DNA of 63,104 bases, counting the filler, from Psammoneis japonica (Eukaryota): assembly GCA_008632985.1 (NCBI GenBank). It is 4 parts of 4 records of this genome, joined end to end, with 100 filler letters (N's around TTAATTAATTAA, not from the genome) between each part and the next. Parts side by side here need not be neighbours in the genome. Positions count along the whole stretch, not along the records: positions 47,617 to 63,104 come from QPGO01000490.1; 3 more parts are not named here. The stretch is one strand, 5' to 3'. The stretch's first letter is position 1, and every line of letters begins with the position of its first letter. The position numbers and the translations under genes are program-made. Under the pieces are notes generated by a model that worked only from the letters and a program-made list of their open reading frames with translations, made no database searches and was not told the origin of the DNA. This document shows positions 20,726 through 61,600 of the stretch, piece after piece.

Positions 20726-20771
20726 TGCGTCGTGAGAGTTAGACGACGCTGTTGTCGCTCATTCTCATGGT

Positions 20772-25672: not shown

Positions 25673-25999
25673 CATTTCTTCGACCTGCTGCCGGTGTTTT
25701 ATTCTGTCGTGTCGACATGGCGGATAGCTATTTAACGTTTCTCGAAGATAGTGTCTATGAACGCAGTCTAAGCTTATGGGACGTGACAAAGGCAACACTT
25801 CGTCTTTATCAGAGTGCTATAACACACTAGTTTTCTTGCCAACGCCGCAATGGTTGCGGGCGACATTGTCTCCAACGCTCCCGTAGCACTAGTATTTTAA
25901 CCCACTGTCACGTTGGATCTACAGAGGCAGGTACCACAAATGAAAGTATTCAATTCTGGTGTATTGATAATAATGTGAATAAAACTATACGTGATTGAA

Positions 26000-34004: not shown

Positions 34005-34437
34005 ATCTCAACAATGTGACAGCTGCGGCAACTCATCTGACTCCAGAGGAGCAGAAGCCACTGATCTTCCCTTTGAAAAGATTTAAATCTCTTTTCAATG
34101 GTTCTCTGGGCGAGTGGACCGGAAAACCTCGCAGTGAAATCTGGCTCAAAACTGCATCATGCAAAAGGTTTCCCATTTCCACAAGCCTTGGAGGCAACTC
34201 GCAAGGAGATTGAAAGGCTCTGCAAGCTAAAAGTCCTAAAGAAAAATGAGCCATTCTGAATGGACAGCTCCAACCTTTAAAAAACAGAAAAATGGTTGAA
34301 GCTTGGTTTCTGTCTGACTTTCGTGAACTGAGTGAGAGGCCAGCACGTGCGCCGCATCCTCTGCCAAATGTTCAGGACATGCTTGAGAAACCAGAAGGTT
34401 TCATGTGCATGGCCTCACTCGATTTGAATGTGGGACA

Positions 34438-34601
34438 CTGTCACATCAAATTAAAAAGGCACATGTTGTGCCAACACAAAAATCATGCCGTCTGCTGCCA
34501 CTGCCTGAAAGAACCGTGCTGTCACATCAAACTAAAAAGGCACATGTCGTGCCAACACAAAAATCATGCCGTCTGCTGCCACTGCCCGAAAGAACCGTGC
34601 T
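34438..34601 (+). repeat. 81-bp tandem duplication at the Gypsy RT / Copia gag junction
   Basis: ctgtcacatcaaa...gaaccgtgct occurs twice, period 81. Confidence 0.85.
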
Positions 34602-40219: not shown

Positions 40220-41934
40220 ACACTCTGTCTTGTCTTGCACCCAATTCTTGGCCATCATGGTGGCATTCATTCAGTCTGTCGGTCTGTCTGTTGACAGGGA
40301 AGTGTGACCTTCGTCCAAGGGGTCAGGCCGGATTTTTGGTGTGTGTCACAGAGAGGGTGCATGTTAAAAAGCATGTGTTAGAGCGAGCAGACTGCACGTC
40401 AAAAGGAAACGTCCATGTGACAATTAAAATCCAACTGACAGATGGTTGAAGTGCAAAAAATCCACAATGGAATTCACAGCCATCACAGGATTGATTGTCA
40501 AGATGAAATGGTCACATCCTTGACCATCATCAATTGCTTGTGAAACGTGGCAGTGCAGCAGAGCAATGTGGCACATGAAGCAAGCCCGCCAAACTGCACA
40601 AAATCCACAAGCAAAGTGAACGCCAGAAACAAGAGCACACATCAAGCACTGGGAAACATGATCCGCACACTTGACTTGCAACACACACCTCTGGATGCTG
40701 AGGATCCTTTTGCTGGAATGTCATCAGCAGCAGCATTTGCAGCACATTCTGTGCATCACACCACTGTGCAAGCCACACCTGGACAAACAGTCTTTGGCAG
40801 AGACATGATGTTCAACGTCCAACATGTCGCAGACTGGAAATTCATCCAGCAGCGAAAACAAAAAATCATGAACAAAAACGACGCTCGAGAGAATGCTTGA
40901 CGTGCTCCTCACACGCACAGAGTGGGGGAGAAAAGATGCTGCACAAACCGAACGGGTTTGCCGTGCAGGTGTGGCTTTTCCCACCCCCCAAAATGAAAAT
41001 GCTGCCCTGGAATGGGGCAGCATCAGGTTGCATTTGTCTGTCGATCTGGCCCGAGCGGAGCTGGTGTCAGTTCAAGGGGACTGAACAAATGCTGACACAC
41101 TGTCATGAACACAGGCAGTTTATGTGCCATTGGCGATTGGTCCACTGTTGCTTGTTCAGTGACCCCAGCAGTGCAACATCTCACAATTCTAGAACCTGTT
41201 GATGCTGTTCAACACTCTGTCTTGTCTTGCACCCAATTCTTGGCCATCATGGTGGCATTCATTCAGTCTGTCGGTCTGTCTGTTGACAGGGAAGTGTGAC
41301 CTTCGTCCAAGGGGTCAGGCCGGATTTTTGGTGTGTGTCACAGAGAGGGTGCATGTTAAAAAGCATGTGTTAGAGCGAGCAGACTGCACGTCAAAAGGAA
41401 ACGTCCATGTGACAATTAAAATCCAACTGACAGATGGTTGAAGTGCAAAAAATCCACAATGGAATTCACAGCCATCACAGGATTGATTGTCAAGATGAAA
41501 TGGTCACATCCTTGACCATCATCAATTGCTTGTGAAACGTGGCAGTGCAGCAGAGCAATGTGGCACATGAAGCAAGCCCGCCAAACTGCACAAAATCCAC
41601 AAGCAAAGTGAACGCCAGAAACAAGAGCACACATCAAGCACTGGGAAACATGATCCGCACACTTGACTTGCAACACACACCTCTGGATGCTGAGGATCCT
41701 TTTGCTGGAATGTCATCAGCAGCAGCATTTGCAGCACATTCTGTGCATCACACCACTGTGCAAGCCACACCTGGACAAACAGTCTTTGGCAGAGACATGA
41801 TGTTCAACGTCCAACATGTCGCAGACTGGAAATTCATCCAGCAGCGAAAACAAAAAATCATGAACAAAAACGACGCTCGAGAGAATGCTTGACGTGCTCC
41901 TCACACGCACAGAGTGGGGGAGAAAAGATGCTGC
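39951..41934 (+). repeat. 992-bp apparently identical tandem duplication (39951-40942 / 40943-41934)
   Basis: Identical ORF translations offset by 992 nt. Confidence 0.92.
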
Positions 41935-42486
41935 TCGAGAAAGACTCACAGAAACTAGAACAGCCCCATGTTGGACCACATGCAACAACAACGGCACACA
42001 CTGATGGCACAGCACAGATCAAACACGGTGACGTCATTGACGCTGTCAACATCCGTCAAATTGCACCGTTCAACAACTGACTCTGATGTGCAATTGGGGA
42101 GGCGAATGCAACATGCATTGTTGTGCACATCATGTGTGCACACACAGAGATGTTAAACAAGTTTGTGCTTCAATTGCACGTCAATTGTGGGTTCGTACGA
42201 AGGACAGATCAATCACATGGAATTGATCGGATGTCGAAAATGGCAAATGCGGTCGCACGATGATGTTGACATCCAATGTGTCAATGTCAATCGCACCTGG
42301 ACAATCTGTTGTCACAATCTTGTTCTCTGAAAAGCCTCTTGTCTGCAGGAACAGTGCAAGTGCTTTGGGCCATTGAGAACCCATTTGGAGAAACCCAAAA
42401 TGATTGAGTGGAAACAAATCTCATAATTTGTCACTTTTCACACTTGACTCTGCTTTTGTTTGCACTCGTTCTTCGAGCATGGTGCA

Positions 42487-44559
42487 CGGCCCTTCTCTGT
42501 CCTGATGATGATTTCTCAGATGAGGCTGTCCCAACAGATGTTTTCCATGCTCACCTCAATGCGATCAGCTCCCGCTCTCTCACTCCGGAGGAGGCTGCTC
42601 TTGACCACATCGAATGGGAAGAAGGCGAGCAGCATCAACTGGACCAATTTCATGCTCTTGGTGTGCATGGCCCTCCCCAACCACGTCCCCCTGGAGCAAA
42701 TGTCATGCATCTGCATTGGGATTGCATGGTGAAGCCGGATGGACAACGTCGTTCTCGGCAATGTGGAGATGGTTCCAAGTCGGCAATGCCGGCCTTGCAT
42801 GAGTTGACTTCCACATGTTTGTCGTGTGTGGAACGTTCTGTCAAAAAGATGTTCTTTGCTCTCAGCGCAGCCATGTCGCATCGTGTCTTCAGCAGTGATG
42901 CTTGGGATGCCTGTGCTCATTCTCCTGGTCCTTCACAGCCGGTTCTTGTTGCTGTCAATGACGCACATGCTGCCTGGTGTGAAAAGAGATTTGGCAAGAA
43001 AGCACCCTGCCATTGTGTTCTCCTGCTCAAGCATGCTCTTCAAGGCCACCCTGAAGCTGGTGTCCTCTGGGAAAAGCGCGTCAATTTGATTCTAACAGGT
43101 GTGAAACTTCTTTTCTGCAATGCCGCTCATGACAAGTGCATCTGCTCTGGTGAATGTGATGGTGTCAAGGTCCTTCTGCTCCGTCAGGTTGATGATTTTG
43201 CACTTGCTTGTCCCTCTGAAAAGATTGCAAAAGAGATCTGCGACCATGTTGGCAAGGCTCTCCAGATGGAAAATGAGGACACTCCTCCGTTCAAGCATTT
43301 GGGCTTGGTTGCTGAATTCAATGGCATTGACATCATCCAAAATGACGACTCGATTGCTGTCAATGTTGCCAGTTACCTTGATCGTGTTTTCAAGACCCAT
43401 GGTTGGGATGATCCCGCTGCGAATGAATCTGAGTCTGATTTCAAAGCTGCACCTGTGCCGGTTGATTGCATCCCTGACCTGTGTGCTGCTGAAGGTCCTG
43501 CAGAGGGTGCTCCTGAGTGTGATGCTCTCTCCGAGTCCCAGGGTTTCTCTCACTGTTCTGTTCTGGGTGAATTGGTCTTTGCTCACTCGTGTTGTTGTTT
43601 GGATGTTGGTCATCCTGTTGTTGCCTTGTCCAAGTTTTCCAAGGCTCTGGCTGAGATTCATTGTGATTCACTCAAGTGCATGGCCAAGTGTTTGTGGTGC
43701 GCCAAACATTGGGGGCTGATGCATGAGAAGTCCAAGCGTGATCCCAGTCTGCCTCCTCGTGATTGTGAATGGCTTGAGGACATGTGATCCATCTCTTCCG
43801 GACTTCCCTTGTGCTGATGACCTCTTCCAACTCCAAGGCTTCATTGATGCAGCACATGCCAATGAACTGTGGCATCACCATTCTGCTGCCGGACACGTGC
43901 ATGTCCTTGCTGGTGCTGCAATTGATTGTCATTGCCGCGCGCAAGTGATTGCTGCCACCAGCTCCATGGAAGCTGAATTTCTCACGGCTGTTGCTGGTGC
44001 AAAACAGACCCTGCACCTCCGCATGGTTCTGGAAGAATTGGGCTTTCCTCGACGTGGTGCCACTCCCTTGCACATTGACAACTCCTCTGCCATCCAGATG
44101 ATCAATGACAAGGTGCCTGCAGAGCGATCCCAACACATTGATGTTCAACATTTTGCCATCCAAGACTGGTGTGACACAGGCAAGATTGTTGCTCGGCATG
44201 TCCCGGGTGTCATTGACCCTGCCGATGTGCTGACCAAGGCTGTGGGTTGGATGCTTCATGCCTGCCATGCCCGCCGTTTGATGGGACACTGCCATTGATT
44301 GTCATTGGGTTGTGTGGATTGAGTCTTGGGTGTGTCTCTCTTTTCTCTGTTTTGTTCTTTGCCACTCTGGCCCTCTCTTTTTATTCGGATCATCTCTTTC
44401 TTTCTTGTCGAGCATTGCATTGCTCATCATGGGAGGGTGACAAACATCCAAGATGGGGAGTGCACTCCCTTGTGTTGGACAGACTGGCATGGACAGCATG
44501 GAGAGATCCAATGATCTCTCCTTTGCTCACTTTCTTTCTCATCCAGCACACGATTGTCA
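42487..44559 (+). mobile_element. Copia C fragment (RT-RNase H plus putative 3' LTR 44438-44559), abutting the Gypsy 1 LTR
   Basis: HALQGHPEAG, LRQVDDFAL, FIDAAHA, MEAEF, IDNSSAI, DPADVLTK; PPT GGGAGGG followed by TGACAA..TTGTCA. Confidence 0.8.
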
Positions 44560-44639
44560 TCTGTCCTGGACATCCGTTAGATTGTCTTGATGCCACCAGT
44601 CCGCAAGTGCCGCCAACGAAAGCTTTTTCATGCACTGAA

Positions 44640-47516
44640 TCCCATCACACAGCAACATCATGACACCACTCACCCGCCCACCCAAGGACCACCACTTGCC
44701 CACATTGCAAATGAGCCTTCTCTTGAGCGCTCCATCATTTTTACCACAACCCGCACTGCGCCTCTGTTGTGCATGAGAGCATCATTCAGTCTCTTGGCAA
44801 CACTGCTGCTTCCCTGTTTGGTGTGGATGGTTTGATTGAGTTTGGTCAAGCATCATCAATTGGTCAGCTGTCTTCCTCAGATGGCTCGTCTCTCCCATGA
44901 TTGGGATGCTCACACCTTGAAGCAGCAATTGACAACATCCATCTCATTCTGTCACCTGCAGAAGCATCCAGCTGGGATGGACCACTGCTTGACAATGACA
45001 TTTCTCCCTTGTGTCTGTTTGTGACATGTTGCAGCATCAAGGCATGTCATGCAAAAACTCAGTTTCCATCCAACGTCCAACAACCAGAGCAAAGAAAACT
45101 TGTTTGAAGCCTTGCCTGACAATGCAATTGACACTGTTAAAAATGAAATGGAAGATGTGTCCTTGGCTCCCTTGTGTGGCGGTGTGTGTTTGAACAATGA
45201 CAGCAGGTTGGGCAAGGTCTGCCCTTTTCCAGCCACCAAAGCATTTGTGAACTTGCTGTCTCTGAGCACTCTCAATGGTGTTTGTGTGAAGCTTTGCAAA
45301 ATGGCAGACCACTGGCAAGCTCTGCTCCATTTGTGCAATGACATTGCATTTTTCATTGAACGACATTGCAGAACAAGCACTTTTCAGCTTGGAATGCAGA
45401 TGCCCCATTGACAAAAACTGGTGGAAACTCTGTCTGGAGTGTTCCCCCATCCCAAGTGTGAGTTGACACCCGTCAATTTAGAAAGTGCAGCAGGGGGGCT
45501 GGGTGAGAAAACTCTCCTGAATCCCACCTGCTGGACACCCACATGTGGGCAAAAGCTGACAACATGGCAGACCCAAAGAATCCATTTGGAAAGTGCTTGG
45601 CAAAGGGACCTGATGACAAGTGTGTCTTGGTGGGTGAGTGGCACAAATGCACTTGCCAAGCCAGAGTGGCCAATCTGCAAAAACAATTCCCAGAGTGTCT
45701 GATTGTGCATGCAGACAAGACTGGCAGGACAGCATCCATGGGATCTTCTTGCAGGGAGCCTGTCACAGTCACCTCAGCCCATGTTGCATTTAAAGAGTGG
45801 CACAACAAGTCCAAGTGGAGAGTCCTTGGGCACATTCCTGATCTTGAGAAAATGTTGCAGCAGTCCATCAATGCACATGAGTTGGAGAAGGGAAGCAGCT
45901 TGCACGACCATCACAAGGTCTTGTGGACAATGCCCCAGCTGCTGTTGGACATGATGCAATGCAGTGGCTTCCAATGCAATGCCAAGAGCAAAGACTGCCT
46001 GGTTGGTTGCTGCGGAGGCAAAAACTGTCGCCAGTGCTGTTTGCAATTTTGCATGACTGGACATCATGAGCTGGATGACCCATGGAAGGAATGCAAGCTT
46101 GTTTGGGAAAGCAGCATTGTGAGGGCACAGGCAATCACCAGGGACAAGGAACTCTCAGACAAAGAGAGGGCTCATTGGGAAAGGGAACTTGATTGTGCAA
46201 AGCAACACAACATCTCCACAAAGTGTTTGCTTCATGCCAACTTTGGAGAGCAACCATTTGGAGTGACCCTTTGCATGGCAAGCAACATGATGCACTGATT
46301 TGAGAAAAGGAACTCTGCAAAGAGAGGTTGTGGAGTCTTCATTGACAGCATGACCAACTCTGTGAGAACAGAGGTGGGTGGAATCATGGAAAGGATGTTC
46401 AGCAAACACTGATGATCCACTTGCAAATTTTTAAGAACAAATTTCAAAGGCGGTGCAACTTCACTTGCATTTCTAAATTTTTGTCACCAGGCCTTGATGG
46501 CACTTGTTTTCTGCCTGTTGCTGCTTGCCAAAGAAGGTTGTGATGCACGCACTTTGTGCTTCTTGTGCAAAGACACAGACAAACTGCCATCACCTGAAGC
46601 AAGACTCATTCCAAAATTCAGATTCAATCATTTCCATCAACCAAATGAGTGCAACAACACCAGCCGTGGCCAAGAAGATGAGTGCAATGCACGCACTTTG
46701 TGCTTCTTGTGCAAAGACACAGACAAGCTGACATCACATTGAGCAAGACTCATTCCAAAATTCAGATTCAATCATTTTCATCAACCAAATGAGTGCAACA
46801 ACACCAGCCGTGGCCAAGAAGATGAGTGCAATTCTGACAACAATGCAACCAACACACGGCGCATCATGCTGGAGGACTCTGTGAACCACCACCAGAATCC
46901 AGACAGCAATGTTGACAAGGACAGAGACAAGAACAACCATGGTTGGAAGAACAGCGAGATGCGCAAACCACTTCAATGCAGTGTTTGTCAGCGCACACAG
47001 CTCCTGGAAGATCTGCTGACATTCCATGCCTGGCGATGCAACTTGGCAACTCCCCCTGGACAGCGCAATGATCTCAACAAAATTGTGAAGAAAATGTGGC
47101 ACTTGGCATCATGCTCAGTGCATTTTTTACTTCGGCATGAAGGAGCCGCACGGAAGCTGCAAAAGCTGCACAAACTGCTGTGCCTCCTGACATTCCTGTG
47201 TTTTTCCTGACATGCAACGAACTTTGATGCCAGGTTGGGCAAGTTCCTCCTAAAGAGCAGCTGGCAACTGCACGACAATGCAGCTTCAAAGTGTTCTTCA
47301 TGCAAGTGGCCTCCCACATGGAAGACCAAATGCTCGTGCACCACACCATTGTCGCAAATGCATGGATGTTGGAAGACAAGGCAAAACAATGAGTGTCCGG
47401 TCCAATGTCTGGACACCATCTTGGCGGGAGCTCCTTCTCAATTTGGCAAGCAAAATGCAAAAGGCTGTGTCCTTTCATTGGTTGGGGAAACAAACCCGCT
47501 GCCAGGTGCACCCTGT
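44640..47516 (+). mobile_element. Degenerate DNA-transposon-like coding remnant (Plavaka/CMC-like), TpA- and CpG-depleted
   Basis: ORF 45543-46298 with DCLVGCC..CRQCC..LDDPW..FGEQPFGV..NMMH, reminiscent of Plavaka-type transposases; weak recognition. Confidence 0.4.
46543..46832 (+). repeat. ~144-bp tandem duplication
   Basis: atgcacgcactttgtgc...gaagatgagtgcaat occurs twice. Confidence 0.85.
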
Positions 47517-48496: not shown

Positions 48497-49367
48497 GAGC
48501 ACAGCACACATCATTTCAAGCCAGAGGGCAAGAAAACGATGAGTGATGCACAGGATGGCATGCAATGGCTGTTTGAGTCGAGAGTCTGCTCCAATGACAC
48601 GCATTTCATCTAATGTGACAGGCTCCAATCTTGTGCATCACAGACGTTGGCTTTTCGCACCAAAGACATTGACTTTTTTGCCCCCCCCCCCCCCCCAAGC
48701 GGGGAGGACATCGCATGGCAGCAGGAGGCACCACCAGGAGAGGGTTGTGCACAGCAGGCCCAGCATCTGCCACTTTGACGCTCTCTTGCACAGTGCTGTT
48801 GAACTTGAAATTCCAGGAGCCAGGCAGGATTTTTTTTGGCTGGGGCTCAACAAGAGAGCTTTTGTGCGCAGCTCTTGGCCTTTGGCGGAGCAGCTGCACG
48901 CTCGTTGCAAGCCATTTGGTCAGAGCATTTCATTTTCACAATGAAAAGGCTGCCAGCTCAAATCTGGCCCAGCTCAAATCTGGCAGCAGGCTTCGACTTT
49001 TGTGTGAAGACTCGCCGCACCACGCGCGCAGGAGCCGTGCACGTGAGCACATCATTTCAAGCTTCAAGCCAGAGAAGGGCATGAAAACGATGAGCGATGC
49101 ACAGGATGGGGTGCAATGTGGGTTTGAGTCAAGAGTCTGCTCTGATGACACATGCCTTGTGTCATCCAGTGTGGCTGGCTTCAATCTCTCGCATGGCAGA
49201 CATGCCAACTTTTTGCTTCCCCCACCACAAAGCAGGAGACACCCTCGAGCAGCAGCACCACCAGGGGGCCTGCAAGAAGGGGTGTTTGCAACAGGCCCAG
49301 CATCTGTGCTGCTTTGGCACTCTCTCACACAACATTGTGAAGCTTGAAATCCGAGAAGCCGGGCAGG
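48497..49367 (+). repeat. Diverged ~540-bp tandem duplication of the tRNA plus downstream flank; second unit continues at 61210 beyond the Gypsy 2 insertion
   Basis: cacatcatttcaagc..gatgcacaggatgg..gagagtctgctc at ~48505 and ~49047; caggatttt continuation at 61210. Confidence 0.7.
48916..48992 (+). pseudogene. Mutated pseudocopy of tRNA-Thr(CGT)
   Basis: ttggtcagagcatttcattttcacaatgaaaaggctgccagctcaaatctggc..agcaggct aligns to the tRNA and has a 16-bp internal duplication. Confidence 0.85.
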
Positions 49368-51503
49368 TGCACTGTGCTCGAAGAACGAGTGCAAACGAAA
49401 GTAGAGTGGTGTGCGAAAAGTGGAAATTGTGAGATTAAAATTTGCTCTGTGATTTTTGGTTTCTCCGAACGAGTTCTCAATGGCCCAAAGCTTCTGCACT
49501 GCTTCTGCAGACAAAAGGCCTTTCGGAGAATGCATTCGTGACAACAGATTGTCCGGATGCGATTGCTGTTGACACGCAAGATGTCAACATCGTCAATCGA
49601 TCGCACCTGCAATTCTCGACATCCGATCAACTCTGTGTGATCGTTCTGTCCTTTGTGCGCATCCACGACTGTGGTGCGATTGACACACAAATGACGTGTG
49701 ATCACAAATGTGTGTGTGACAGTCGCATGCTGCATTCGCCTCCCCAATTGCACATTGGAGTCATTTGCAAGTGGATTGTTCGACGGACATCGACAGTGTC
49801 AACAATGTCTCCACTTTCACTGCATTGTGCCATTGGCAATGACTGTTGTTGTTTTGCACGGGCAACACAGGGCCGTTCCAATTTCCAAATGTCTTTTGAG
49901 AGTGACATTGTTTGTTTCTCACTTAACATGTGCATGCACAGCACCATGTCGAGTGTTCTCATTGACGTTCTTGTTGATGTGAACACAAGGACTGATTGTC
50001 CTGGAGCAAGTGTTTTTCCTGACATCGATTGCACGTGGCATCGTGCCCAGTGCTTAATGTGCGCTCTCAATTGTGGCGTTCACTTGCTTGCTTGTGGATT
50101 TCATGCAGTTTGGCGGGCTTGCTTCATGTGCCATGTTGCTCTGCTGTGCTGCCACGTTTCACAAGTGACAACAAACGATGGTCAAAGATGTCATGACAAT
50201 TTCGTCTTGACAATCAATCCTGTGATGGTTGTGAATTCCATTGTGGATTTTTTTTTTTTTTGCACTTCAACCATCTGTCAGTTGGATTTTGATCGTTGTT
50301 TGGACGTTTCTTTCTGACATGCCGTTGTTGTTTTGTCATTCCGAAGGCACTGGTTTCGTGCACTGAGTGGGTGAATGTCCATTTTTCTTTTCTTTTTCTA
50401 GATCTTTGGCACATCTCGTGTGTCGACATGATGCACATTTTAATGTCTTGCCTTGTACATTGTACAATGCAACCGCACGGGTGTTGTGAGATTGTCTTTT
50501 GCCAGTGTGAAGTGGACACGTATGATGTGCGCCAATCTGTCACTGTTTTTTCCTAAATCGTCCTTTAAAAAGGCGATTTTATCCTTGTGACTTGAGCATT
50601 TTTTGATCTCGCTCGCCTCCACGAAAAGTGTTCGCATGATGTGTCGCGTCCGACAATTTGGAGGGAATGTCTTTGTCCCGTTTTAACGGCAGGACATTGT
50701 CGCAGGATTCAATTTTCTATGGCAAGTCGGCTGATCGCGTCTGTCGCGACGATGTTCGCCTTGCCCTCGTTGCAATCTAATTCGGGACTGAAGTTGTCAA
50801 CGCACGACTTTGTCCGTTGTGTCTTGTGATCCGTGTGTGCACAAATCTGTTGGCCAAACAGCATGTTTCGGAATTTTGTGAGTGTTTTCACTGTGGACAG
50901 AAGTTCTTTTTTCCGTTGTGACACACAATGTTGAAATCCGTGTATGATGACAACACAGTTTTTGATTTGACATGCTCCACATTTTCGGAGACTTTTCGTT
51001 CCGCACTTGCACTTTTGCCGTTTGACCTTCATTGAGGTGAATTTGGCTGGTGTTGTGCAGGAGATCGTTGAGACTGCATGTCTCGACAACAGCAACGCAT
51101 GACAACGAGATGTCGCAGTGTTCTTTGCGTTTTTCTCGTGTTGCGATTGCTTGAATCGCCTCCATTTTCTTTGCAATCGATTGCATGTCGTCACGCATGG
51201 AAGTCTTGACAGTTTGTTTCAAGTTAAACAGTGAAGGACTTTTGTTGTTGACCTTCTAAGCGACTGTTCTAGTCGTTTGAATGCCGCACTAAGCTGTTGC
51301 TTGCACAGGTGACATTTTGAAGTTACTTTTGTCAGGCACAAACGATCACATGTGGTCGTTCTGACAACTTCAAACCTGTCATGAGTTCACTCAAGTGTTG
51401 CACAAAAACATCTGGGGCTCTGTAGATTCTCATTGGAAGTCCACAGTGCTCATTTTCTCCCCACGGCATGATTTTCGTGTGAGCACGACGTGTGCTTTTT
51501 TTA

Positions 51504-54500
51504 TGACAGGATTTGAACAGGATTTGGATGCGCGCGAAGCATCGCGCGCTGTTTAGTTTACCGCGCACAGTTTTGTGTGCTTTAGTTCTGCGCGTTCACG
51601 CGCGATGCAGTTTGCTTTCGAGCCACAAGGCTCACAAGAATGACAACAGCAGCCCAATCACACCGACTTGCACGTCTTTCGGCTCCTGCAACGGTCTCTG
51701 AGCGGAGACTCATCTGCTGTTTAGACAGCAGCAAGGAGTCATTGTTTGAATTCTTGCCATTTGCCTTCAACTTCTGTCAGATTAACAGTCTTGCTCATTG
51801 TCAACCCATTGAGCAACCGCCATCGTCGTCGTTGATTTACCAACCACGCCATTTCAATTCCACGTGGACCTCCGTATGTGTTCTACATGCATCGGCAAGT
51901 CTACGCGCATTCAATGCCAGGGCATCGGCAGGAAGTTAACGTCACCGTCAAGTCTCCTTACCGCTGGATGTCTGGATTGATCATGCTGCCTTTGATCGCT
52001 GAAGACACACATTCAACGGTCACATCCAAGTCTGTCCTTGATCCTCATCCCTTGACACACCTGTTCATCGGTTGACGGTCAAGAACCCCACATGTTCAAG
52101 GATCTTCGTCGCTGGAGACATGTGTGTGCACGCATGTCTTCACGGCCAAGAACCTGCACCTGCTCTTCGGACCACGGTTTTGCTGCCACTCTGCAAGCAC
52201 ACCGAGTCCATTGCACCTGATCTGCCCCGGACCACTGGTGCTCCACAGCTCCACTGGGTCCACGAGGACGACTGTGAGAGCAAGCAGCCGTGATTGCAGC
52301 CCACGTTGGGGCGAGGGTGCTTTCCCGCGTTTGTTCATTCGTCCACAGCGCCTGACGCCTGCGTCAACTGGCCAGCCTGATCGGGAAATCCAACCGACAT
52401 AAAATGAGAACGGTTCGGGGGTCTTGTCCACCTCTGGTCAGCTCACCTGCAGGGGTTTACAACCCGCCACTCCGCTCGCAAGCAACCCAAAGCGCCGCCA
52501 GCTGCGGGTTCAGACGTGCCGGCACAACTCTACGGACCGGACAGGAAGTTTAGCACTTGACAACGAACGGGATGACAAAGCCCGGCGACTTCTGATTTTA
52601 AGACAGTTCAAGATTTCAAGTCAAGTCTGTTTCAAGTCAAGTCCATTCTCATCCAAGTTTTCGAGTCTGCCTTCGCTTCCCAACCAGAATTGATTGTCCT
52701 GACACCACTTTTGTCTGCCATGGTTCTCACTCGTCAGCAACAAACCGATGGTTTCGAGCACGTTGTTGGAACCGTGCTTGCTCAAGGTGCTGGGAGTCCT
52801 CTTCGTTTGGCTTTGGCCCAAGACGGCACGGACTCGTGTCAGGAACTGTTCACATTCATGCCGTCCCAAATCGACTCGCTTGAGCGCGACAACGGCACTG
52901 ATGTGATCCCTTTGCCCCGTGGCCATGAGAACATGTTAGCAGCACTGGCTGGCCTGCACATTGTCAAAGCACACAAGGGTCTTGACGTTGCCAACGACTC
53001 CTCTTTGTTCACGCATGACGAGTTCCTTGCCTGCCGCCTCAGCCCGGACTGCATGTCCTCTGTGTCCATCGGCAGCTCACCCCTTGCACCTCCACATGTC
53101 ACCAACCCGACCAAGGCACGCGACCCAGTGCGAGACTTCAAGCGAGGCATCAAGCGTGATCCCACCGCTTTCACGGCTCTCAAATCCGACAAGCAGTGGC
53201 ACACTTGGCACACCTCACTTGTGGCACAGGCCCGTGCCCAAGACGTCGAGTGCATTCTAGACTCGTCGTACAAACCGACCAGCCCCGAAGACAAACTGCT
53301 CTTTGCTGAACAGCAAAAGTGCATGTTCGCCATCTTTGAATGCATCCTTCTCACCGACAAGGGCAAGGCTCTCATTTGCGAAAATGTGGGGTCTTCTGAC
53401 GCACAGACCGTCTGCCGCTCCTTGTCTGAGCACGCGCTTGCCTCCACCCGTGCATCTGTCGAGTCCTCCACCCTGCTCACGCACCTCACCACCGCACGTC
53501 TTGGTGATGGCACTTGGAAAGGTCCGACCCACGGGTTCATCCTTCATTGGCAAGATCAGTTGCGCAAGTGCGAGGCACTCATCCCCGCCAGTGACCACTT
53601 CTCCGAAGGACAGAAGCGCGTCATGCTCGAGAATGCCATGCACCCTGTCGAGGAACTCCGTGCTGTCAAGAACCAAGCTGATCAGCATCGTGCGCAGAGT
53701 GGCAAGAGCCTCACATGCGATCAATGCTGTGGCTTGCTCCTCTCCGCGGCAGCTCAGTGCGACAGCACGTTTCAACCCAAGACGACACCTCGAGCTCCCC
53801 GACGCGCCACATGCGCACACGACGTCTGCTCCGAGGAACCGTCCGACGATGTGTTCTACGACATTGACAGTGATGTTGACGTCCTTCAAGCCAATGCTGC
53901 CTGCACCCGCGGTCCCAGCCTCACCGGTGTCCAATGGAGACGTCTCCCTCCCGACCACCAACGGCTCTGGGATTCGTTGCCCGATTCCTCCAAGGCGATC
54001 ATCATTGAGCACTCTCGCCCGCCTCCCCGCAACCCGCGAGCCAGCAACTGCCATGAGTCTGTTGCGGCCAACCTTCACGGCCAACACCTTGGGAGTGACG
54101 GTGATGTCAACTTGTCCAACACGACTCCTGCTGACTGTGGTGACTCCGCCACACATGTGGACGCCACTTCGGACAATCCCATCCTGGCGCACCTCACCAA
54201 GCGCAAGCCACTGCCACCCGGCGATCTGCAACGTCTGTTGTCTCCTAACCACGCCCCCAATGCCAGTCGACCGGGGCCATCCGCCGCTTCCTCTGCCCCA
54301 CCAGCTTCTGCAGATGACATGGAACTTAACGGCCGCACTTGCCGCCGCGTCAACAACCACAATGTCATTTGCTCTGCCTCTGCTCATCGCTCCACACGCA
54401 CTGGCGCTCTAGTCGATCGTGGGGCCAACGGCGGCATTGCTGGCGACGACGTTCGCGTCATCACACGCACCTCTCGCCAAGTCGACGTTCAGGGCATTGA

Positions 54501-57500
54501 CGATCATCAATTGGTGGACATCCCCATTGTCACTGCTGGTGCCGTCATTGAGACCCAGCGTGGTCCCGTCGTCGCCATCCTCCATCAGCACGCACACACG
54601 GGAAAGGGCAAGACCATCCATTCCTGCGGCCAGCTCGAATGGTGCAAACAGGATGTCAACGATCGCTCTGTCAAGGTGCCCAACGGCTTGCAACGTATTG
54701 CCACTCCTGATGGCTGTGTCATCCCCATTGACATCAAGGCTGGCCTGCCTCATGTTGCCATGCGACCTTGCACTGACGCCGAATGGGACACCCTGCCCCA
54801 TGTCATCCTCACCGGTGATGACACATGGGACCCTTCCGTCCTCGATCACTCTGTCACTGACAACGACCAGTGGTGCGACGCGATCTCTGACCTGCAGGAC
54901 GATCCCACTGCCAACCTGTTTGACAAACACGGCAACTACCGTCACCGTGTCGTTGTCAACGAGACCATCTTGTCCGCTTCCTTGTCTGCCGATCACGCGT
55001 CCGCCCTCGATGATCACCTCATTCCGAACGACGACGTGTTCCACGAGTGTCATCTGCATGCGATTGACCCCCAGGGCGATGACGTTCCACCTCCGGAGCG
55101 CACTGTCCAGCCCAAGGACCCCCCCTTCGAGTCTCTTCGGCCTTGCTTTGGCTTCCTGCCTGCCGATGCGGTCCGTCGCACTTTTGACTGCACCACGCAG
55201 TGCACCTGCATGCCCGCCGGCACACACCTTCGCAAGGCCTGCAAATCACCCAATCCCACCCTCAATGTGCACCGCCACAACGAGCCTGTCGCCACTGACA
55301 CCGTTCATGCCGACACCCCGGCCGTCGACTCTGGTTGCACCAGCGCCCAACCATTTGTTGGCACCGAGTCTACCGTCACTGACGTCTGCGGCACTAAGAC
55401 GGACAAAGAGTTTGTCAACACACTCGAGGATCAGATCCGTGAACGTGGTGCCCCATCCAAACTCATTGGCGACCGTGCTCAAGTTGAAATCAGCAACAAA
55501 GTGCTCGGGATCCTACGCGCCCTCTTCATCTCCAGCTGGCAAAGTGAGCCTCACCAGCAACACCAAAACTTTGCCGAGCATCGACACCAGACCGTGAAGC
55601 ACATGGCGAACACTGTCATGGACCGTTTTGGTTCGCCCGCCCACACATGGCTGCTGGCGCTCATGTGCGTGTGCTTCACACTCAACCACACAGCGTCCCC
55701 ACGTCTCCACTGGCGCATGCCCCTCGAGACTCTCACTGGATCCACCCCGGACATCAGCCCATTGCTTCGCTTTCACTGGTGGGAACCAGTGCACTTCCAC
55801 CTCGATGACTCCGATTGGCCGTCCGAATCCCGTGAGTTGCGCGGACGCTTCGTTGGCATTGCTGAGCACGTCGGCCACCAGATGACCTTCAAGATCCTGT
55901 CTGACGAGACTCAGAAGATCCTCTGCCGGTCCAACGTTCGCTCCGCCACCCCTGATCCTGCCGTTCGAAACCTGCATCTTGATCCTCCTGATGGGGAGCC
56001 ACCTGAACCCATCATCAAATCTCGCCATGACGACAACCCCGTCGATTCTCCTGATGGGGAGATCAGGACACCCAAGATGCCAGTTTTCGATCCGCAAGAC
56101 ATCATTGGACGTACCTTCCTCATGCAGCCACAAGAGGACGGACAACGCCACAGAGCTCGCATCGTCAAGGCCGTCGAAGACCACGAATGGAAAGTGAACG
56201 GCAATCCCGAGCTCACTAAGTTCGTCTGCTCTGTCAACAATGACGAATACGAGGAAGTCCTTGCCTGCAATGACATCATGAATCACATTGAGCAAGAAGA
56301 CGAAGACACCACCATTTGGAAATTTCGACGCATCGCATCACACGAAGGACCTCTGAAGCCTCACGACCCAACCTGGAAAGGCTCAAGCTACAACATCATG
56401 CTTGAATGGGAAAGTGGGGAGATCACGTCCGAGCCTCTTGCCATCATCGCCAAGGACGACCCCGTCACCTGTGCCATCTGTGCACGAGAGAACGGACTCC
56501 TAGACACGGATGGCTGGAAGCGGTTCCGCACTATCGCGAGGCGCCAAAAGAAGCCATTTCGCATGGCCAACCAAGCCAAGCTTCGCTCCTTCCGCACTGC
56601 ACCTCGCTACAAGCACGGATGCGAAGTTCCCCGGAACTACAAACACGCCATGTCACCAGACGAACGCAACGGCAACCGCAAGTGGGGAGACGCAACTAAT
56701 CTCGAGATGGACCAACTCGACGAATGCGAAGTCTTCCATGACTGCGGGCCCTTCAAGTCTTCCACTCCTCCTGCGGGACACAAGAAGATCCGAGTGCACC
56801 TGGTGTTCGACGTGAAACACGACGGTCGCCACAAGGCACGACTCGTAGCCGACGGGCACCTCACGGACGCACCTGTCGACAGTGTGTGCTCCGGAGCAGT
56901 CTCCCTCCGTGGCCTTCGGCTGATGATTTTCCTGGCCGAACTCAACGAGCTGGAGACATTGGCCACCGACATTGGCAATGCCTGCCTTGAAGCCACCACC
57001 AAGGAGAAGCTTTACATTGCAGCTGGACCCGAATTTGGCAAACTCGAAGGACACATCCTTGTCATCCACAAGGCACTGCATGGACTGCGCAGCTCCGGTC
57101 TCCGCTGGCACGAGCGCTTCGCCGACTGCCTGCGAGCTGAAGGCTTCTTCCCCTGCCGCGCCAAACCCGACATTTGGATGCGCAGGGACGGCGACCACTG
57201 TGAATGCATTGGCGTTTATGTGGATGACCTCGCCATTGCCATGAAGGATCCTCAATCTTTCATCGACACTCTCACGGAAAAATGCAAGTTCAAGCTCAAG
57301 GGTGCGGGACCCATTGAGTTCCATCTGGGTTGCGACTTTTCCCGGGACCCCGACGGAACCTTGTGCCTGTCTCCGCGCAAGTGCATCGAGCGCATGGTCG
57401 ACAGCTGCGCCCGATTGTTTGGGGAGAAACCTGCCACCAATGCCCTGTCACCTCTAGAGAAGGGTGACCACCCCGAACTGGACACTTCCGAACTGCTGGG

Positions 57501-58612
57501 ACCCGATGGCATTCACAAGTTCCAGTCTCTTGTTGGTTCACTCCAATGGGCAGTGTCCCTTGGTCGAATTGACATCACCACGGCTGTCATGTCACTCTCT
57601 AGCTTCCGAGCTGCGCCCCGTCAAGGCCACTTGGATCGTGCCAAACGCGTCTGTGGGTGCCTCTCCAAGATGCGACACGGTGCTCTCCGCGTTCGCACGG
57701 AAGAGCCCGACTGTTCGGATCTCCCTGCTCCGGCCTGTGAATGGATGCATTCCGTGCATGGTGAAGCAGAAGAGATGATCCCGAAGGATGCTCCACCGCC
57801 CCTTGGCAAGTTCGTCACTGCCACCCACTGCGTCGATGCAAACTTGCACCATTGCATGCTCACCGGATGCTCTGTCATGGGAATGCTCCACTTCCTCAAC
57901 AAATTCCCGGCTGATTGGTTCTCCAAGAAACAAGCCACCGTGGAGACTGCAACCTGCGGATCTGAATTTGTTGCCGCAAGGAATTGTGTTGAGCAGATTG
58001 TCGACCTGCGCATCACCCTGCGCTGCCTTGGCGTCCCGATCCGTAATGTCAGTTGCATGTTCGGTGACAACAAGTCGGTTGTAGACAGTGCCACCATCCC
58101 GCACTCCAAGTTACACAAGCGACACACCGCACCATCGTTCCACCATGTGCCTGAGGCAATTGCCTCTGGTTGCCTTGAGCTCCACTTCATCGAGGGCTCC
58201 CGCAACCCTGCTGACATTCTCAGCAAGCATTGGGGTTGCTCCCAAATCTGGGACCTTCTCCGCCCCCTCATGTTCTGGAACTTCATCCCATCCGAAGTCG
58301 AATCTGTTTCTGTGGCTCCTCAAGCAAACTGGGGAGTGACAGGATTTGAACAGGATTTGGATGCACGCGAAGCATCGCGCGCTGTTTAGTTTGCCGCGCA
58401 CAGTTTTGTGTGCTTTAGTTCCGCGCGTTCACGCGCGATGTAGTTTGCTTTCGAGCCACAAGGCTCACAAGAACAATGACAGTAGCCCGATTGCACCGAC
58501 TTGCACGTCTTTCGGCTCCTGCAACGGTCTCTGAGCGGAGACTCATCTGCCATTTAGACAGCAGCGAGGAGTCATTGTTTGAATTCTTGCCATTTGCCTT
58601 CAACTTCTGTCA
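51504..58612 (+). mobile_element. Copia A (CoDi-like), full length; 276-bp LTRs 51504-51779 and 58337-58612, 5-bp TSD TTTTA
   Basis: LTRs TGACAG..CTGTCA, PPT GGGGAG, TTTTA on both flanks, single gag-pol ORF. Confidence 0.95.
52720..58389 (+). CDS. Copia gag-pol polyprotein (~1889 aa), open but hypermutated (Tyr to Cys/His)
   Basis: Protease LVDRGANGG, integrase TDTVHAD..SEPHQQHQNFAE, RT KARLVADGH and YVDD, RNase H VDAN/SEFVA/DNKS/NPADILSK. Confidence 0.92.
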   Translation: MVLTRQQQTDGFEHVVGTVLAQGAGSPLRLALAQDGTDSCQELFTFMPSQIDSLERDNGTDVIPLPRGHENMLAALAGLHIVKAHKGLDVANDSSLFTHDEFLACRLSPDCMSSVSIGSSPLAPPHVTNPTKARDPVRDFKRGIKRDPTAFTALKSDKQWHTWHTSLVAQARAQDVECILDSSYKPTSPEDKLLFAEQQKCMFAIFECILLTDKGKALICENVGSSDAQTVCRSLSEHALASTRASVESSTLLTHLTTARLGDGTWKGPTHGFILHWQDQLRKCEALIPASDHFSEGQKRVMLENAMHPVEELRAVKNQADQHRAQSGKSLTCDQCCGLLLSAAAQCDSTFQPKTTPRAPRRATCAHDVCSEEPSDDVFYDIDSDVDVLQANAACTRGPSLTGVQWRRLPPDHQRLWDSLPDSSKAIIIEHSRPPPRNPRASNCHESVAANLHGQHLGSDGDVNLSNTTPADCGDSATHVDATSDNPILAHLTKRKPLPPGDLQRLLSPNHAPNASRPGPSAASSAPPASADDMELNGRTCRRVNNHNVICSASAHRSTRTGALVDRGANGGIAGDDVRVITRTSRQVDVQGIDDHQLVDIPIVTAGAVIETQRGPVVAILHQHAHTGKGKTIHSCGQLEWCKQDVNDRSVKVPNGLQRIATPDGCVIPIDIKAGLPHVAMRPCTDAEWDTLPHVILTGDDTWDPSVLDHSVTDNDQWCDAISDLQDDPTANLFDKHGNYRHRVVVNETILSASLSADHASALDDHLIPNDDVFHECHLHAIDPQGDDVPPPERTVQPKDPPFESLRPCFGFLPADAVRRTFDCTTQCTCMPAGTHLRKACKSPNPTLNVHRHNEPVATDTVHADTPAVDSGCTSAQPFVGTESTVTDVCGTKTDKEFVNTLEDQIRERGAPSKLIGDRAQVEISNKVLGILRALFISSWQSEPHQQHQNFAEHRHQTVKHMANTVMDRFGSPAHTWLLALMCVCFTLNHTASPRLHWRMPLETLTGSTPDISPLLRFHWWEPVHFHLDDSDWPSESRELRGRFVGIAEHVGHQMTFKILSDETQKILCRSNVRSATPDPAVRNLHLDPPDGEPPEPIIKSRHDDNPVDSPDGEIRTPKMPVFDPQDIIGRTFLMQPQEDGQRHRARIVKAVEDHEWKVNGNPELTKFVCSVNNDEYEEVLACNDIMNHIEQEDEDTTIWKFRRIASHEGPLKPHDPTWKGSSYNIMLEWESGEITSEPLAIIAKDDPVTCAICARENGLLDTDGWKRFRTIARRQKKPFRMANQAKLRSFRTAPRYKHGCEVPRNYKHAMSPDERNGNRKWGDATNLEMDQLDECEVFHDCGPFKSSTPPAGHKKIRVHLVFDVKHDGRHKARLVADGHLTDAPVDSVCSGAVSLRGLRLMIFLAELNELETLATDIGNACLEATTKEKLYIAAGPEFGKLEGHILVIHKALHGLRSSGLRWHERFADCLRAEGFFPCRAKPDIWMRRDGDHCECIGVYVDDLAIAMKDPQSFIDTLTEKCKFKLKGAGPIEFHLGCDFSRDPDGTLCLSPRKCIERMVDSCARLFGEKPATNALSPLEKGDHPELDTSELLGPDGIHKFQSLVGSLQWAVSLGRIDITTAVMSLSSFRAAPRQGHLDRAKRVCGCLSKMRHGALRVRTEEPDCSDLPAPACEWMHSVHGEAEEMIPKDAPPPLGKFVTATHCVDANLHHCMLTGCSVMGMLHFLNKFPADWFSKKQATVETATCGSEFVAARNCVEQIVDLRITLRCLGVPIRNVSCMFGDNKSVVDSATIPHSKLHKRHTAPSFHHVPEAIASGCLELHFIEGSRNPADILSKHWGCSQIWDLLRPLMFWNFIPSEVESVSVAPQANWGVTGFEQDLDAREASRAV

Positions 58613-61600
58613 TTTTATTTGACACGGTGGCATTCCATGTTTGAATCAAGTGGATTGCACACATGAAACGTTCTTGCTTCAACAGTGTTTCCTGAATGTT
58701 GGGTGAAGGATGCACCACCTGCACGAACCTTGTGCCAAGCTTCTGAGTGTCGGGTGCGGTCGAACTCGACCTGTTTTCTTTGGACAATGAGTCTCAGAGC
58801 GACTCATTCAGAGCAATTTCATTCTTAAGACTTCAATCTTTCACAACAGGTCAAACTCCTTTTGATTGGACGCCTCCAAAGACTGTGATGGGAGAAGGTT
58901 CTCACGCGTCGTGGAATCGCGTCAGATTTTCCACGATGAGATCCACTGATGTTTCCCATGCATTCGTCTGAGGAACTTTTCAAAATGATTTCAACCTCTC
59001 AAGAAGAAGATTGAGATGGTTGTGTTCATTTGGGTTAGATGCATCGCCGCAGTTGTCACTTGGTTAAGATCGATGGCGTGACAATGTGAGTCGAGGACCA
59101 TTGGTTCCGTCACTGACTCCATTCACGGCGTCACATTTTTCAATGTGATCGGTTTTCAGCTTGAAAACATCGGCATCGAAGAGTGCACGAACATTCTTCA
59201 TAAGGTGATTGCTTCTTCCCATTAGATTTCTGCATTTGCGCAGTCCAACATGACTTGCAGGACTGGACATTGAGTCGCGTCCCATGATCACATCATTTGA
59301 ACCTGAAGAAAATTTGGTGTTTTCAACATGTGCTGTTTGAACATCAGCATGCCTTAAATTTCACATGGTGAGAACTGAATTCGGTGTTTGCTGTCAGTCG
59401 TAAAGAGCTCACCCTTGGTTTCCCAAGTTTTTTGGCGGTGGGTGTTTTGGTTCTCAACTTTCGCACGAATTTGCGCAAAATTGTGGTTGACGATGTTCCG
59501 TTGTCGATCGGAACACGTAGATGCTTTTTTCTCTCCTTTCCCAAGGAAGTGTTCACACAAATGATGACTCCTGGACTGGCATGAATTATTTCTGCCTTTT
59601 TTCTGGGCTTCCTGACATCCAGTGAAGCAAATAATTCGTGAACAGACCCAAAATTGTTCTTCGGATTCAGTCTGGATCATCCGATCAAATTGGCACTTTT
59701 CTTCACTGAGGGCATCAGAATCTGATTCTTTGCCCTTGTGCTCTTTTTCTTTGTTCAAGGAACTCGCTTTGAGCATTTTTTGAACCGCCTGATCAATCAT
59801 GACGTTCATCTCTTTTTTTGCGAGCGGCATTTTCGTCATCGCGACGCGACCGCGTGCGATTGCCATTTGAACGGCGCATTTTTGGGTCTCTTTCAGAGTC
59901 ACCCTTGCACTCTTTTGCTAGTTCATTTTTAGAATGGCTTCAATCCGTGATGTGGGCATTCTTTTTTCAAAGACAAGACCTTGCATTCACTTTGGATTGT
60001 TCTGGTGCCACACAGGAGACCATTTTTGGAACCAAATTTGGAACCTTTTTTATTTTGGAACCAACTGCGCTGTCAGAGCCTGAGTTGACATGTTTTTTCG
60101 TCACGGACGTCATGAACGACCTTTAGATGACTCAAAACTTAATCAGCTCATCAAGGATGAGTTGCAACAGTTGATTGTTTTGGACAGTAGACTGGTGCTG
60201 CCATCCTTGCGGTGCGAGTGATGGCTGACAAATCAGCGCTCGGTTTCCCGCTAGATTCGACTTAGAATCCATCTGAGGGTCGCACAGACTCTCATCATTG
60301 ACCTCTTGGGTCTAACAGAGGCTTTCTTGCTGTCAAGCAGCTCTGGTTTCTTCAGATCGTCTTGAAAATAACAGCTCTGATTCTGAAGTGCAGTTCTTGG
60401 AAAGACATGAGATGTGAGACTCTTGAGGTACTTTCCAACGGTTCCATCTTGCTCTTGGACTCGAGGCTCGTTGATTCGGTCTCCAAAAACTCTCCAACAG
60501 TCTCTCCTTGCATGCTAGACGCATTTCTCGGACCTGATCGACTCGGAACTTGCACTCTCTGCAACCATGACTTGGTGTAGATTTTTTGACAATGTGGTGT
60601 GCTTGAGAGCCCTTGATCCTTGGGTGCTTGGAATAGACCGCATTAGAGCGAATCCTCTTGTTTGGCAGACGAAAAACAGCGTTCCATCTTGAGGCACTGC
60701 TCGGCTTGAGCTTCTTCCGCTCGGAAATCGATTCCAGCAGAACTGATGCGATTCGTTCCTGTCCACAGAAGAATTTGCAAAGGCACATTAGTTAAAATTT
60801 TCATTTTCCGTGCTTTTTACCTTCTGTGGTGTGTATACACAATGCACTATGCTCGAAGAACGAGTGTAAACGAAAGTAGAACAGTGTGCGAAAAGTGGAA
60901 ATTATGAGATTAAAATTTGCTCTGTGATTTTTGGTTTCTCCGAACGAGTTCTCAATGGCCTAAAGCTTCTGTACTGCTTCTACAGACAAAAGGCCTTTCG
61001 GAGAATATATTCGTGACAACAGATTGTCCGGATACGATTGCTATTGACACGTAAGATGTCAACATCGTCAATCGATCGTATTTGCAATTCTCGACATCCG
61101 ATCAACTCTGTGTGATCGTTCTGTCCTTTGTACGCATCCACGACTGTGGTACGATTGACATATAAATAATATATAATCATAAATATGTATATAACAGTCG
61201 CATACTGCACAGGATTTTGGCAGCTCTTGGCGCCTTTGCCCCTGGGCCTGTGCACTTGTTGCGAGCCGTTTTGGAGCTCGGCCACTGGGGACTGTGCATG
61301 CAAGATCATGATCTGCACCCCAGTGCTTGTCAAGCACTTCATAATCATTTTTTAGTGCACATGTTTTGTGGTGGGAAACTTGGCTCCATCTTCCCCTTGT
61401 GAGAATCATTCGAAAGCGGGGCAAACCTGAAAGCGTTGAGAATAAATCATCATATGCTAAAATGTATGTCATTCAATTAATGAATCCAATTGGATATATA
61501 TTCATATTTTTATATCTATCGTTTCTTAACCACGATTGATAATTATGCAGAAATTAATGTACCATTTAGTACTCTCTACTTAGAGCATGATGTTGTGTTG

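Follow-up and report, generated by a model that had tools for sequence, protein, structure and literature searches.

How one long terminal repeat (LTR) of a retrotransposon can be stripped of almost all of its TpA dinucleotides when its twin at the other end of the same element has kept 28 of them is the question raised by a 63,104-nucleotide stretch of Psammoneis japonica DNA (assembly GCA_008632985.1; hereafter the window), in which an outer LTR retrotransposon, itself interrupted by a nested Ty1/Copia element, lies within repeat DNA that is generally TpA-poor (Table 1). Aligned to each other, the 3′ LTR (copy A) and the 5′ LTR (copy B) of the outer element share 367 gap-free columns with 32 mismatches, all of them transitions and none transversions, and at 31 of the 32 copy A carries G or C where copy B carries A or T (19 G/A and 12 C/T differences). 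TA in copy B reads TG (16 cases) or CA (9 cases) in copy A at 25 of the 32 differences when scored by script, and at 27 when counted by hand. A reading of the sequence alone (the sequence-only reading) had reported that about 23 of 27 such events have the mutated A in a 5′-TAY-3′ context on its own strand (Y, pyrimidine; R, purine). The hand count returns the same 23 of 27 and the script 21 of 25, where the changed A is followed by T in 12 cases, C in 9, G in 1 and A in 3. The TpA sites of copy B are, however, already rich in TAY and, when both strands are scored and normalised for available sites, 21 of 40 A residues before a pyrimidine have changed versus 4 of 16 before a purine (Fisher p=0.079), so that the LTR pair alone does not establish a preference and the small-sample warning attached to the sequence-only reading was justified. 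At positions 49695-49696, copy B has TA and copy A has CG; as both bases of the TpA differ, this site requires two successive events, the second of them outside a TpA context.

The TpA-poor sequences of the window fall into five domains that total 32,045 bp, with the interval 48612-60842 divided into the outer element with the relic on its left and the nested Copia element, and they were compared with a control set of 29,310 bp. The window-wide TpA counts include a single copy of a 992-bp sequence that is exactly duplicated in tandem within a repeat domain (39951-40942 and 40943-41934, 100% identity); this duplication could be real or an assembly artefact. The repeats contain 176 TpA and the control 1086, corresponding to 1.9-10.3 per kb in the five domains and 37.1 per kb in gene-bearing DNA. 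Each domain border is located within one 500-bp bin and at the left border of D2, for example, 31 TpA in 25501-26000 are followed by 0 in 26001-26500.

RTAY, mixed (YTAY or RTAR) and YTAR sites number 14, 61 and 101, respectively, in the repeats and 362, 537 and 187 in the control (chi-square p=1.3e-32). The claim that TAY is favoured and YTAR relatively refractory is thereby borne out, and can be sharpened to an order of T > C > G >> A for the base that follows the A. The four contexts that had been named as frequent survivors, TTAA, CTAG, TTAG and CTAA, account for 101 of the 176 TpA in repeats, and the flank bias persists when NTAN tetranucleotides in repeats are normalised to the gene-bearing control within the window. 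Survival relative to control is zero for ATAT (0 versus 89 sites, with ~97 expected) and then rises through ATAG (0.023), ATAC (0.037), GTAC (0.063), ATAA (0.094), GTAA (0.146), CTAC (0.148), CTAG (0.183) and CTAA (0.523) to TTAA (0.963). The ranking RTAY < mixed < YTAR is present separately in four of the five domains; in D2, RTAY and mixed sites are tied with one site each. It is unchanged when 71 unmutated metagenome relatives of the Copia element provide the baseline, and a Markov expectation generated internally from the repeats gives the same ranking, with observed/expected (o/e) values that extend from 0.00 for ATAT to 2.68 for TTAA.

As TA is palindromic, each site offers an A on both strands; the A on each strand is hit at a rate set mainly by its 3′ base (T > C > G >> A), and the loss rate of the site is the sum over the two strands. 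RTAY sites accordingly vanish, mixed sites are lost mostly via the TAY strand, YTAR sites persist and TTAA is almost immune. An additive model of the two strands, in which each +1 base has a single parameter, fits the ten contexts with an R2 of 0.90-0.96 over two baselines, and returns rates (-ln survival) of 2.6-2.7 for T, 1.4-1.5 for C, 0.9-1.0 for G and 0-0.3 for A. The rate with G at +1 is ~1/3 of that with T, and an A at +2 gives some extra protection. Among the dinucleotides, o/e values in repeats and control are 0.09 versus 0.56 for TA, 0.59 versus 1.01 for CG and 1.61 versus 1.18 for CA/TG, and the remaining seven classes differ by no more than 0.05, including AA/TT at 1.18 in repeats and 1.17 in the control. 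The excess of TG/CA, 26.9 per 1000 tetramers, is approximately the sum of the TA loss (16.3) and the CG loss (10.1).

Two copies alone cannot polarise a change, and C>T mutation at CpA, of the kind generated by repeat-induced point mutation (RIP), would give the same pairs. With three copies of the outer-element LTR, there are 17 sites at which copy B has TA and both of the others have TG or CA and, at 6 of these 17, the other two have opposite products, so that TA, TG and CA are all present, which demonstrates independent hits on an ancestral TA. In the second copy of the internal region of the outer element, there are 40 aligned TG/CA pairs and 18 TA-versus-TG/CA events, 11 of the 18 at slow YTAR sites. 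The protein encoded by the nested Copia element (P0001) provides an outgroup. Relative to 120 homologues, it has 0.5% Tyr versus 3.0-5.0%, 3.5% Cys versus 0.5-1.7% and 5.0% His versus 2.6-4.6%. In an alignment with the 60 of these homologues that have at least 1700 residues, 51 columns have at least 70% Tyr, and P0001 has at these columns 29 Cys, 9 His, 7 Tyr, 4 Phe, 1 Arg and 1 Trp, and so Cys or His in place of tyrosine at 38 of the 51. Its other conserved residues are retained at 78-100%; 43 of 47 Lys and 22 of 24 Asn remain versus 7 of 51 Tyr. Based on the Tyr, Cys and His composition, the Tyr columns and the three-state LTR sites, we regard the polarity, TA to TG or CA, as settled. Changes of TA to TG or CA never make a stop codon in any frame position; TAG is destroyed, and TAA is removed by TA>CA alone, with TA>TG turning TAA into TGA. 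This is why the dead Copia element keeps a 1937-codon frame that reaches into its 3′ LTR.

The palindrome also dictates that survivor counts cannot separate a pyrimidine after the A from a purine before the T, but the two can be told apart by the products. Among the mixed sites of four repeat pairs that do not overlap, the strand that changed has TAY in 16 cases and TAR in 4 (p=0.012). A Tyr codon reads TAY on the sense strand, and a preceding C or T places TAR on the antisense strand whereas a preceding A or G places TAY on both strands. Tyr codons that follow C or T have become Cys in 16 cases and His in 1, and those that follow A or G have become Cys in 13 and His in 8 (Fisher p=0.026). The survivor-based rates, obtained independently, predict the same product shares. 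The rule sits 3′ of the changed A, not 5′ of the T on that strand, and this is equally the 5′ side of the changed T on the other strand; when both strands are favourable, each is used about equally. In silenced repeat domains of this nuclear genome, A:T is changed to G:C in a manner that is restricted to TpA and governed by the +1 base, and we hold with high confidence that this signature, and its origin at the level of DNA, are real.

Public sequencing runs, which were examined as assembled contigs only and so with rare variants, strand and levels not visible, provide evidence for the targeting of the change, and indirect evidence for its tempo, over 48500-62600. An 828-nt contig (run X1) joins position 49363 straight to 61210 with a single copy of the target duplication, and so documents an empty site in the same sample; the outer element is accordingly a heterozygous or polymorphic insertion. 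Between the flanks of this empty site and the window there are 5 differences in 828 letters (0.6%), versus the 32 in 367 (8.7%) that separate the two LTRs and, with such divergent LTRs in a polymorphic insertion, dating by LTR divergence would badly overestimate its age. Immediately left of the insertion, a relic (48781-49363) has 0 TpA in 583 bp at a depth of 54.9, versus ~51 for unique DNA, and as a relic at single-copy depth has been stripped as well, present copy number does not define the target. Summed contig depths are ~64,000-149,000 for the Copia family (51326-58861 region), ~6,600-21,000 for the outer element and ~51 for the unique flanks and, if taken at face value, would be those of a very large expansion of the Copia family.

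Loss of TpA can be separated from decay of CpG. The Copia element has a TpA o/e of 0.10-0.15 with a CpG o/e of about 0.9, whereas older repeats at 1-2000, 26001-29000 and 44001-47000, with a CpG o/e of 0.05-0.24, have lost both dinucleotides, so that TpA loss is the faster of the two. Places at which nearly all other Copia copies differ from the window copy are, among the 40 listed of 836 variable places, mostly CG in the family and CA or TG in the window copy, and the changes private to the window copy are thus mostly CpG decay. The many copies of the family may have been saturated independently or may descend from an already mutated master. The 71 metagenome relatives have a TpA o/e of 0.35-1.02 and no YTAR-enriched survivors, with the relative at the lower limit (L030; TpA o/e 0.35) having a YTAR share of only 0.08. 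As the seed peptides used for the metagenomes contain Tyr, mutated copies would be missed and the frequency of the process cannot be deduced from these relatives.

Table 1. Features of the window, in window coordinates (a dot marks features listed with no strand)
Feature	Coordinates	Strand	Remarks
Outer LTR retrotransposon	49364..61213	-	11.8 kb; TG..CA ends; 4-bp target-site duplication 49364-49367 / 61210-61213
LTR copy A (3′ LTR of outer element)	49368..49734	-	nearly saturated; 2 TpA remain, o/e 0.08
LTR copy B (5′ LTR of outer element)	60843..61209	-	almost unmutated; 28 TpA, o/e 0.82; proxy for the ancestral state
Third copy of outer-element LTR	42170..42486	-	2 TpA, o/e 0.08
Second copy of outer-element internal region	31871..33597	-	81.5% identical to 59078-60807 in reverse
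Remnant open reading frame with RT_RNaseH domain (PF17917)	50709..51218	-	25.3 bits, cut-off 24.8
Nested Ty1/Copia element	51504..58612	+	LTRs 51504-51779 / 58337-58612, 15 mismatches in 276; 5-bp duplication 51499-51503 / 58613-58617
Copia open frame (RVT_2), protein P0001	52576..58389	+	1937 codons; extends 53 bases into the 3′ LTR
TpA-poor domain D1	1..2080	.	4 TpA; CpG depleted too
TpA-poor domain D2	25989..29068	.	8 TpA; CpG o/e 0.05-0.4
TpA-poor domain D3	31871..47516	.	nested retrotransposon remnants, two weak RVT_2 matches; assembly gaps at both ends
TpA-poor domain D4	48612..60842	.	single-copy-depth relic (48612-49363), outer element, nested Copia
Gene-bearing control DNA	2081..25988	.	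LRR, PDCD2_C, ankyrin/TPR, DUF1295, peroxidase and Sec10 matches; TpA o/e ~0.56, CpG ~1.0

The outer element had been called a Gypsy element in the sequence-only reading. Its LTRs with TG..CA ends, its 4-bp duplication and its empty site uphold the LTR pair as such, and the RT_RNaseH remnant, which barely exceeds its cut-off (25.3 versus 24.8 bits) and is the sole basis for the family name, makes a Ty3/Gypsy-like label plausible. The large open reading frame (ORF) between the outer LTRs belongs to the nested Copia element (RVT_2) and not to the outer element. In addition to the genes listed in Table 1, the window has host genes that encode PhyH and Sec6. The PhyH gene has diatom sequences as its named relatives, with 50-58% identity and no match at 100%, and the host genes look diatom-like, which points to a diatom or a close relative and not to Bigelowiella natans. 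Arrays of 8-bp units at 15902-16030 and 18840-19500 border runs of N (15921-16020 and 18867-19494), and GC in the 18-21 kb region is low (0.35-0.37).

Within silenced repeat domains, A:T to G:C conversion takes place in DNA, at 5′-TA-3′ only, and we propose that the underlying chemistry is most likely deamination of adenine to hypoxanthine by an enzyme with a cytidine deaminase (CDA) fold, TadA/ADAT-like or other, that would be recruited to silenced chromatin. The process is confined to domains with borders sharper than ~500 bp, outruns CpG decay and creates no stop codons, and such deamination would be of the same kind as the TpA hypermutation of Bigelowiella natans. That the agent is an adenine deaminase, our leading candidate, is, on the sequence features available, an evenly balanced proposition. 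T at -1 agrees with the TadA family, which needs U before the target A, and at +1, where T (2.6-2.7) exceeds C (1.4-1.5) in the window, wild-type TadA acts in a UACG-dependent manner and TadA-8e favours UA without a downstream preference (PMC12296453). The tRNAs served by ADAT enzymes cover eight amino acids (PMC8266599) and it follows, from this amino-acid list and the genetic code, that the base after A34 in ADAT2/3 tRNAs is G (Thr, Ala, Pro, Ser), A (Leu, Ile, Val) or C (Arg) and never U. The ADAT2/3 tRNA repertoire is thus close to the reverse of the +1 preference in DNA. Should the agent be a deaminase, we would expect it to be a paralogue dedicated to the task, or some other enzyme with a CDA fold, rather than the housekeeping ADAT2 that has been proposed as the candidate enzyme for B. 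natans (bioRxiv 10.64898/2026.01.13.699255). It is possible, although on the doubtful side, that diatoms and chlorarachniophytes have in common an ancient defence enzyme present throughout the stramenopile-alveolate-rhizarian (SAR) supergroup, a chromatin-guided DNA adenine deaminase that is distinct from ADAT2/3 and constitutes a natural adenine base editor. Equally tentatively, such a putative SAR-wide deaminase would have as its fingerprint 5′-TA-3′ followed by the +1 order T > C > G >> A, and would erase integrated viruses and transposons while an insertion is still polymorphic and never generate a stop.

Several observations weigh against a chromatin-guided deaminase or against the generality of the signature. 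A Pfam scan of 64 ORFs in the window gave no match to a deaminase family. The best +1 base, T, is unlike that of wild-type TadA (UACG) and is absent from ADAT2/3 substrates. The sequence cannot tell whether the A or its paired T is the base that is chemically altered. YTGY/RTGR ratios in bulk tetranucleotides are 1.26 in repeats, 1.21 in the control and 0.98 in Copia, with any signal swamped by background TG/CA, CpG decay and element composition, and the sense-strand gain of TG/CA over the metagenome baseline is similarly confounded, as the Copia family is richer in GC (CG, 70.9 versus 44.7 per kb). Copy B keeps 28 TpA though TpA-poor DNA flanks it on both sides, and a simple domain model does not account for this untouched LTR. 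Protection of this 5′ LTR as a promoter in use, conversion by a younger copy and assembly from reads of other copies are possible explanations and, as this LTR has ~800 copies, its sequence could have been assembled from other copies. The repeat copies have common ancestry, so that the site counts are not fully independent, and everything rests on one 63-kb stretch of P. japonica DNA.

The alternative that survives best places the attack on the T. In silenced repeats, a dioxygenase of the TET/JBP type would turn the T of TpA into 5-hydroxymethyluracil (5hmU) as a mark, further oxidation would yield 5-formyluracil (5fU), and occasional mispairing of the modified base with G would then give T>C. 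The decay of TpA would be a side effect of epigenetic marking, much as that of CpG is a side effect of 5-methylcytosine (5mC), and the rule, read from the T, would become ATA > GTA > CTA >> TTA. The palindromic site makes the A and T readings indistinguishable in every count reported here, and dinoflagellates belong to the SAR supergroup. Dinoflagellate homologues of TET/JBP make 5hmU that is enriched in repeats, a dioxygenase inhibitor activates the marked transposons and, in C. cohnii, the T residues replaced by 5hmU are preferentially those of TA and TC dinucleotides (PMC11572971). In mutation-accumulation lines of B. natans, the rate at TpA is ~6e-7 per site per generation, low enough for a dense mark that is weakly mutagenic, but the mutations arose in just 11 of 15 lines, with 2-45 per line, which resembles bursts of enzyme activity and not a steady leakage (bioRxiv 10.64898/2026.01.13.699255). 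Thymine modification is not raised in the Discussion of that preprint. A saturated copy A beside an untouched copy B would require the mark to differ between twins. Furthermore, pairing of 5hmU with A is good, and 5fU is only modestly mutagenic and does not give T>C exclusively, both of which count against this route, and overall we consider it unlikely but deserving of some weight.

Far less probable is an error-prone patch repair, in which T:G mismatches that result from 5mC deamination in methylated repeats recruit mismatch repair and a polymerase similar to Pol eta that miscopies T and so generates A>G at WA (W, A or T). Pol eta hotspots include TA, and the repeats do also show CpG decay (CG o/e 0.05-0.6), but the WA motif includes AA and this polymerase makes many transversions, whereas there are 0 transversions in the 32 LTR differences, AA/TT is unchanged (1.18 versus 1.17), and Lys (43/47) and Asn (22/24) were kept as Tyr (7/51) was lost. 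As the Copia element has lost most of its TpA (o/e 0.10-0.15) with CpG still at ~0.9, TpA can be lost without prior events at CpG. Pol eta had been offered in the sequence-only reading alongside a TadA-like deaminase, and that option falls on the transitions (32 of 32) and on the untouched AA/TT.

Editing of retrotransposon RNA by an ADAR-like enzyme, with the edited copies then being reverse transcribed and inserted, is a slightly more remote prospect again. ADARs do prefer U before the edited A. Hyper-edited animal retroelements are noted in the discussion of the B. natans preprint, in which the mutations nevertheless arose in integrated DNA during culture (bioRxiv 10.64898/2026.01.13.699255). 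In the window both DNA strands have changed, as documented by 9 His and 29 Cys at the Tyr columns and by 12 C/T and 19 G/A differences in the LTRs, and editing of the element RNA cannot then be the cause. The LTRs of one insertion differ, the relic at single-copy depth has also been stripped (0 TpA in 583 bp) and G at +1 is a poor context, so that the earlier argument against ADAR, with +1 G and the two strands as evidence, holds. Least credible of all is that copy B gained TA by RIP-like C>T, RIP being C>T at CpA that yields exactly a TA-versus-CA/TG pattern, or that TA in modified DNA was miscalled as TG/CA in a draft assembly with gaps, for although two copies alone cannot polarise a change, TpA is depleted and not enriched in all repeats, conserved Tyr has become Cys or His relative to 60 outgroup proteins, there are three-state TA/TG/CA sites, and 4472 of 19,056 contigs from an independent assembly of public runs, which may derive from the same sample, are at least 99% alike to the TpA-poor sequence. 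As causes, Pol eta, ADAR and RIP fail on the features tested, namely transitions only, both strands, AA/TT and polarity.

TpA hypermutation that has reached saturation in the LTR retrotransposons of diatom-like DNA suggests a process that is widespread in SAR, which includes a large share of marine primary producers. The flank rule, T > C > G >> A with immune TTAA and additive strands, is a fingerprint that can be compared with the in-vitro signatures of candidate deaminases or thymine dioxygenases, and can also be applied to the 231 published de novo mutations of B. natans. Being near the opposite of the ADAT2/3 tRNA repertoire, it calls for caution in regard to ADAT2/3 as the B. natans candidate. 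For annotation, dead elements in such genomes keep kilobase-long open frames that gene finders would call, and dating of insertions by LTR divergence is invalid. If true, a natural TA-specific A-to-G editor of DNA would be of interest to those who build base editors.

The closest known system is that of B. natans, described in a 2026 preprint, in which A>G or T>C accounts for 230 of the 231 de novo mutations recorded in two integrated viral regions, every one of the 230 at TpA, with long-term depletion of TpA, gain of CpA and TpG, and TpA-poor ORFs enriched for reverse transcriptase and endonuclease domains (bioRxiv 10.64898/2026.01.13.699255, Mettrop et al.). As in B. natans, A>G and T>C make up nearly all of the changes in the window, which lie at TpA and are limited to foreign or mobile domains with host genes spared. 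In contrast, B. natans is a rhizarian, and the targets studied in it were one insertion of a nucleocytoplasmic large DNA virus (NCLDV) and one of a virophage, with a TpA Rho of at least 0.45 (bioRxiv 10.64898/2026.01.13.699255), whereas LTR retrotransposons with o/e values of 0.03-0.15 are involved here; the mutations were seen arising there but are deduced from standing sequence here. In the main text of the preprint the words context, flanking, trinucleotide and tetranucleotide do not occur, and neither a flanking rule nor TTAA immunity is stated there. Our literature search returned no report of TpA hypermutation other than this preprint and none for diatoms, and a term search of diatom transposon papers found no mention of TpA, hypermutation, dinucleotides or deamination.

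RIP in ascomycetes is similarly a dinucleotide-specific transition hypermutation that ruins repeats, with a skewed signature and sharp domains. RIP, however, creates TpA and stops and hits both duplicates, whereas here TpA is destroyed, GC is raised and no stops are made, the twin LTRs keep 28 versus 2 TpA and the TpA o/e of the repeats is 0.09. TadA-type enzymes convert A to inosine that is read as G, and engineered forms act on single-stranded DNA; to our knowledge, a natural chromatin-targeted DNA activity of the TadA/ADAT family has been shown in no alga. TadA, ADAT2-ADAT3 and the TadA base editors are alike in having U or T directly 5′ of the target A (PMC12296453), but TadA wants C at +1 and ADAT2/3 have G, A or C and never U, whereas in the window T is best and A is worst. 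Dinoflagellate 5hmU is also a base modification on repeats in SAR, with an old report of a preference for TA (and TC), but is a silencing mark for which the accessible part of the source reports no T>C decay (PMC11572971). CpG decay of the 5mC type also feeds TG and CA, and does so in the same repeats (CG o/e 0.05-0.6), yet is separate and slower. Set beside these systems, TpA hypermutation itself is already described in B. natans, and the present analysis extends it to a second lineage, shows that it can saturate retrotransposons and gives the flank rule in quantitative form.

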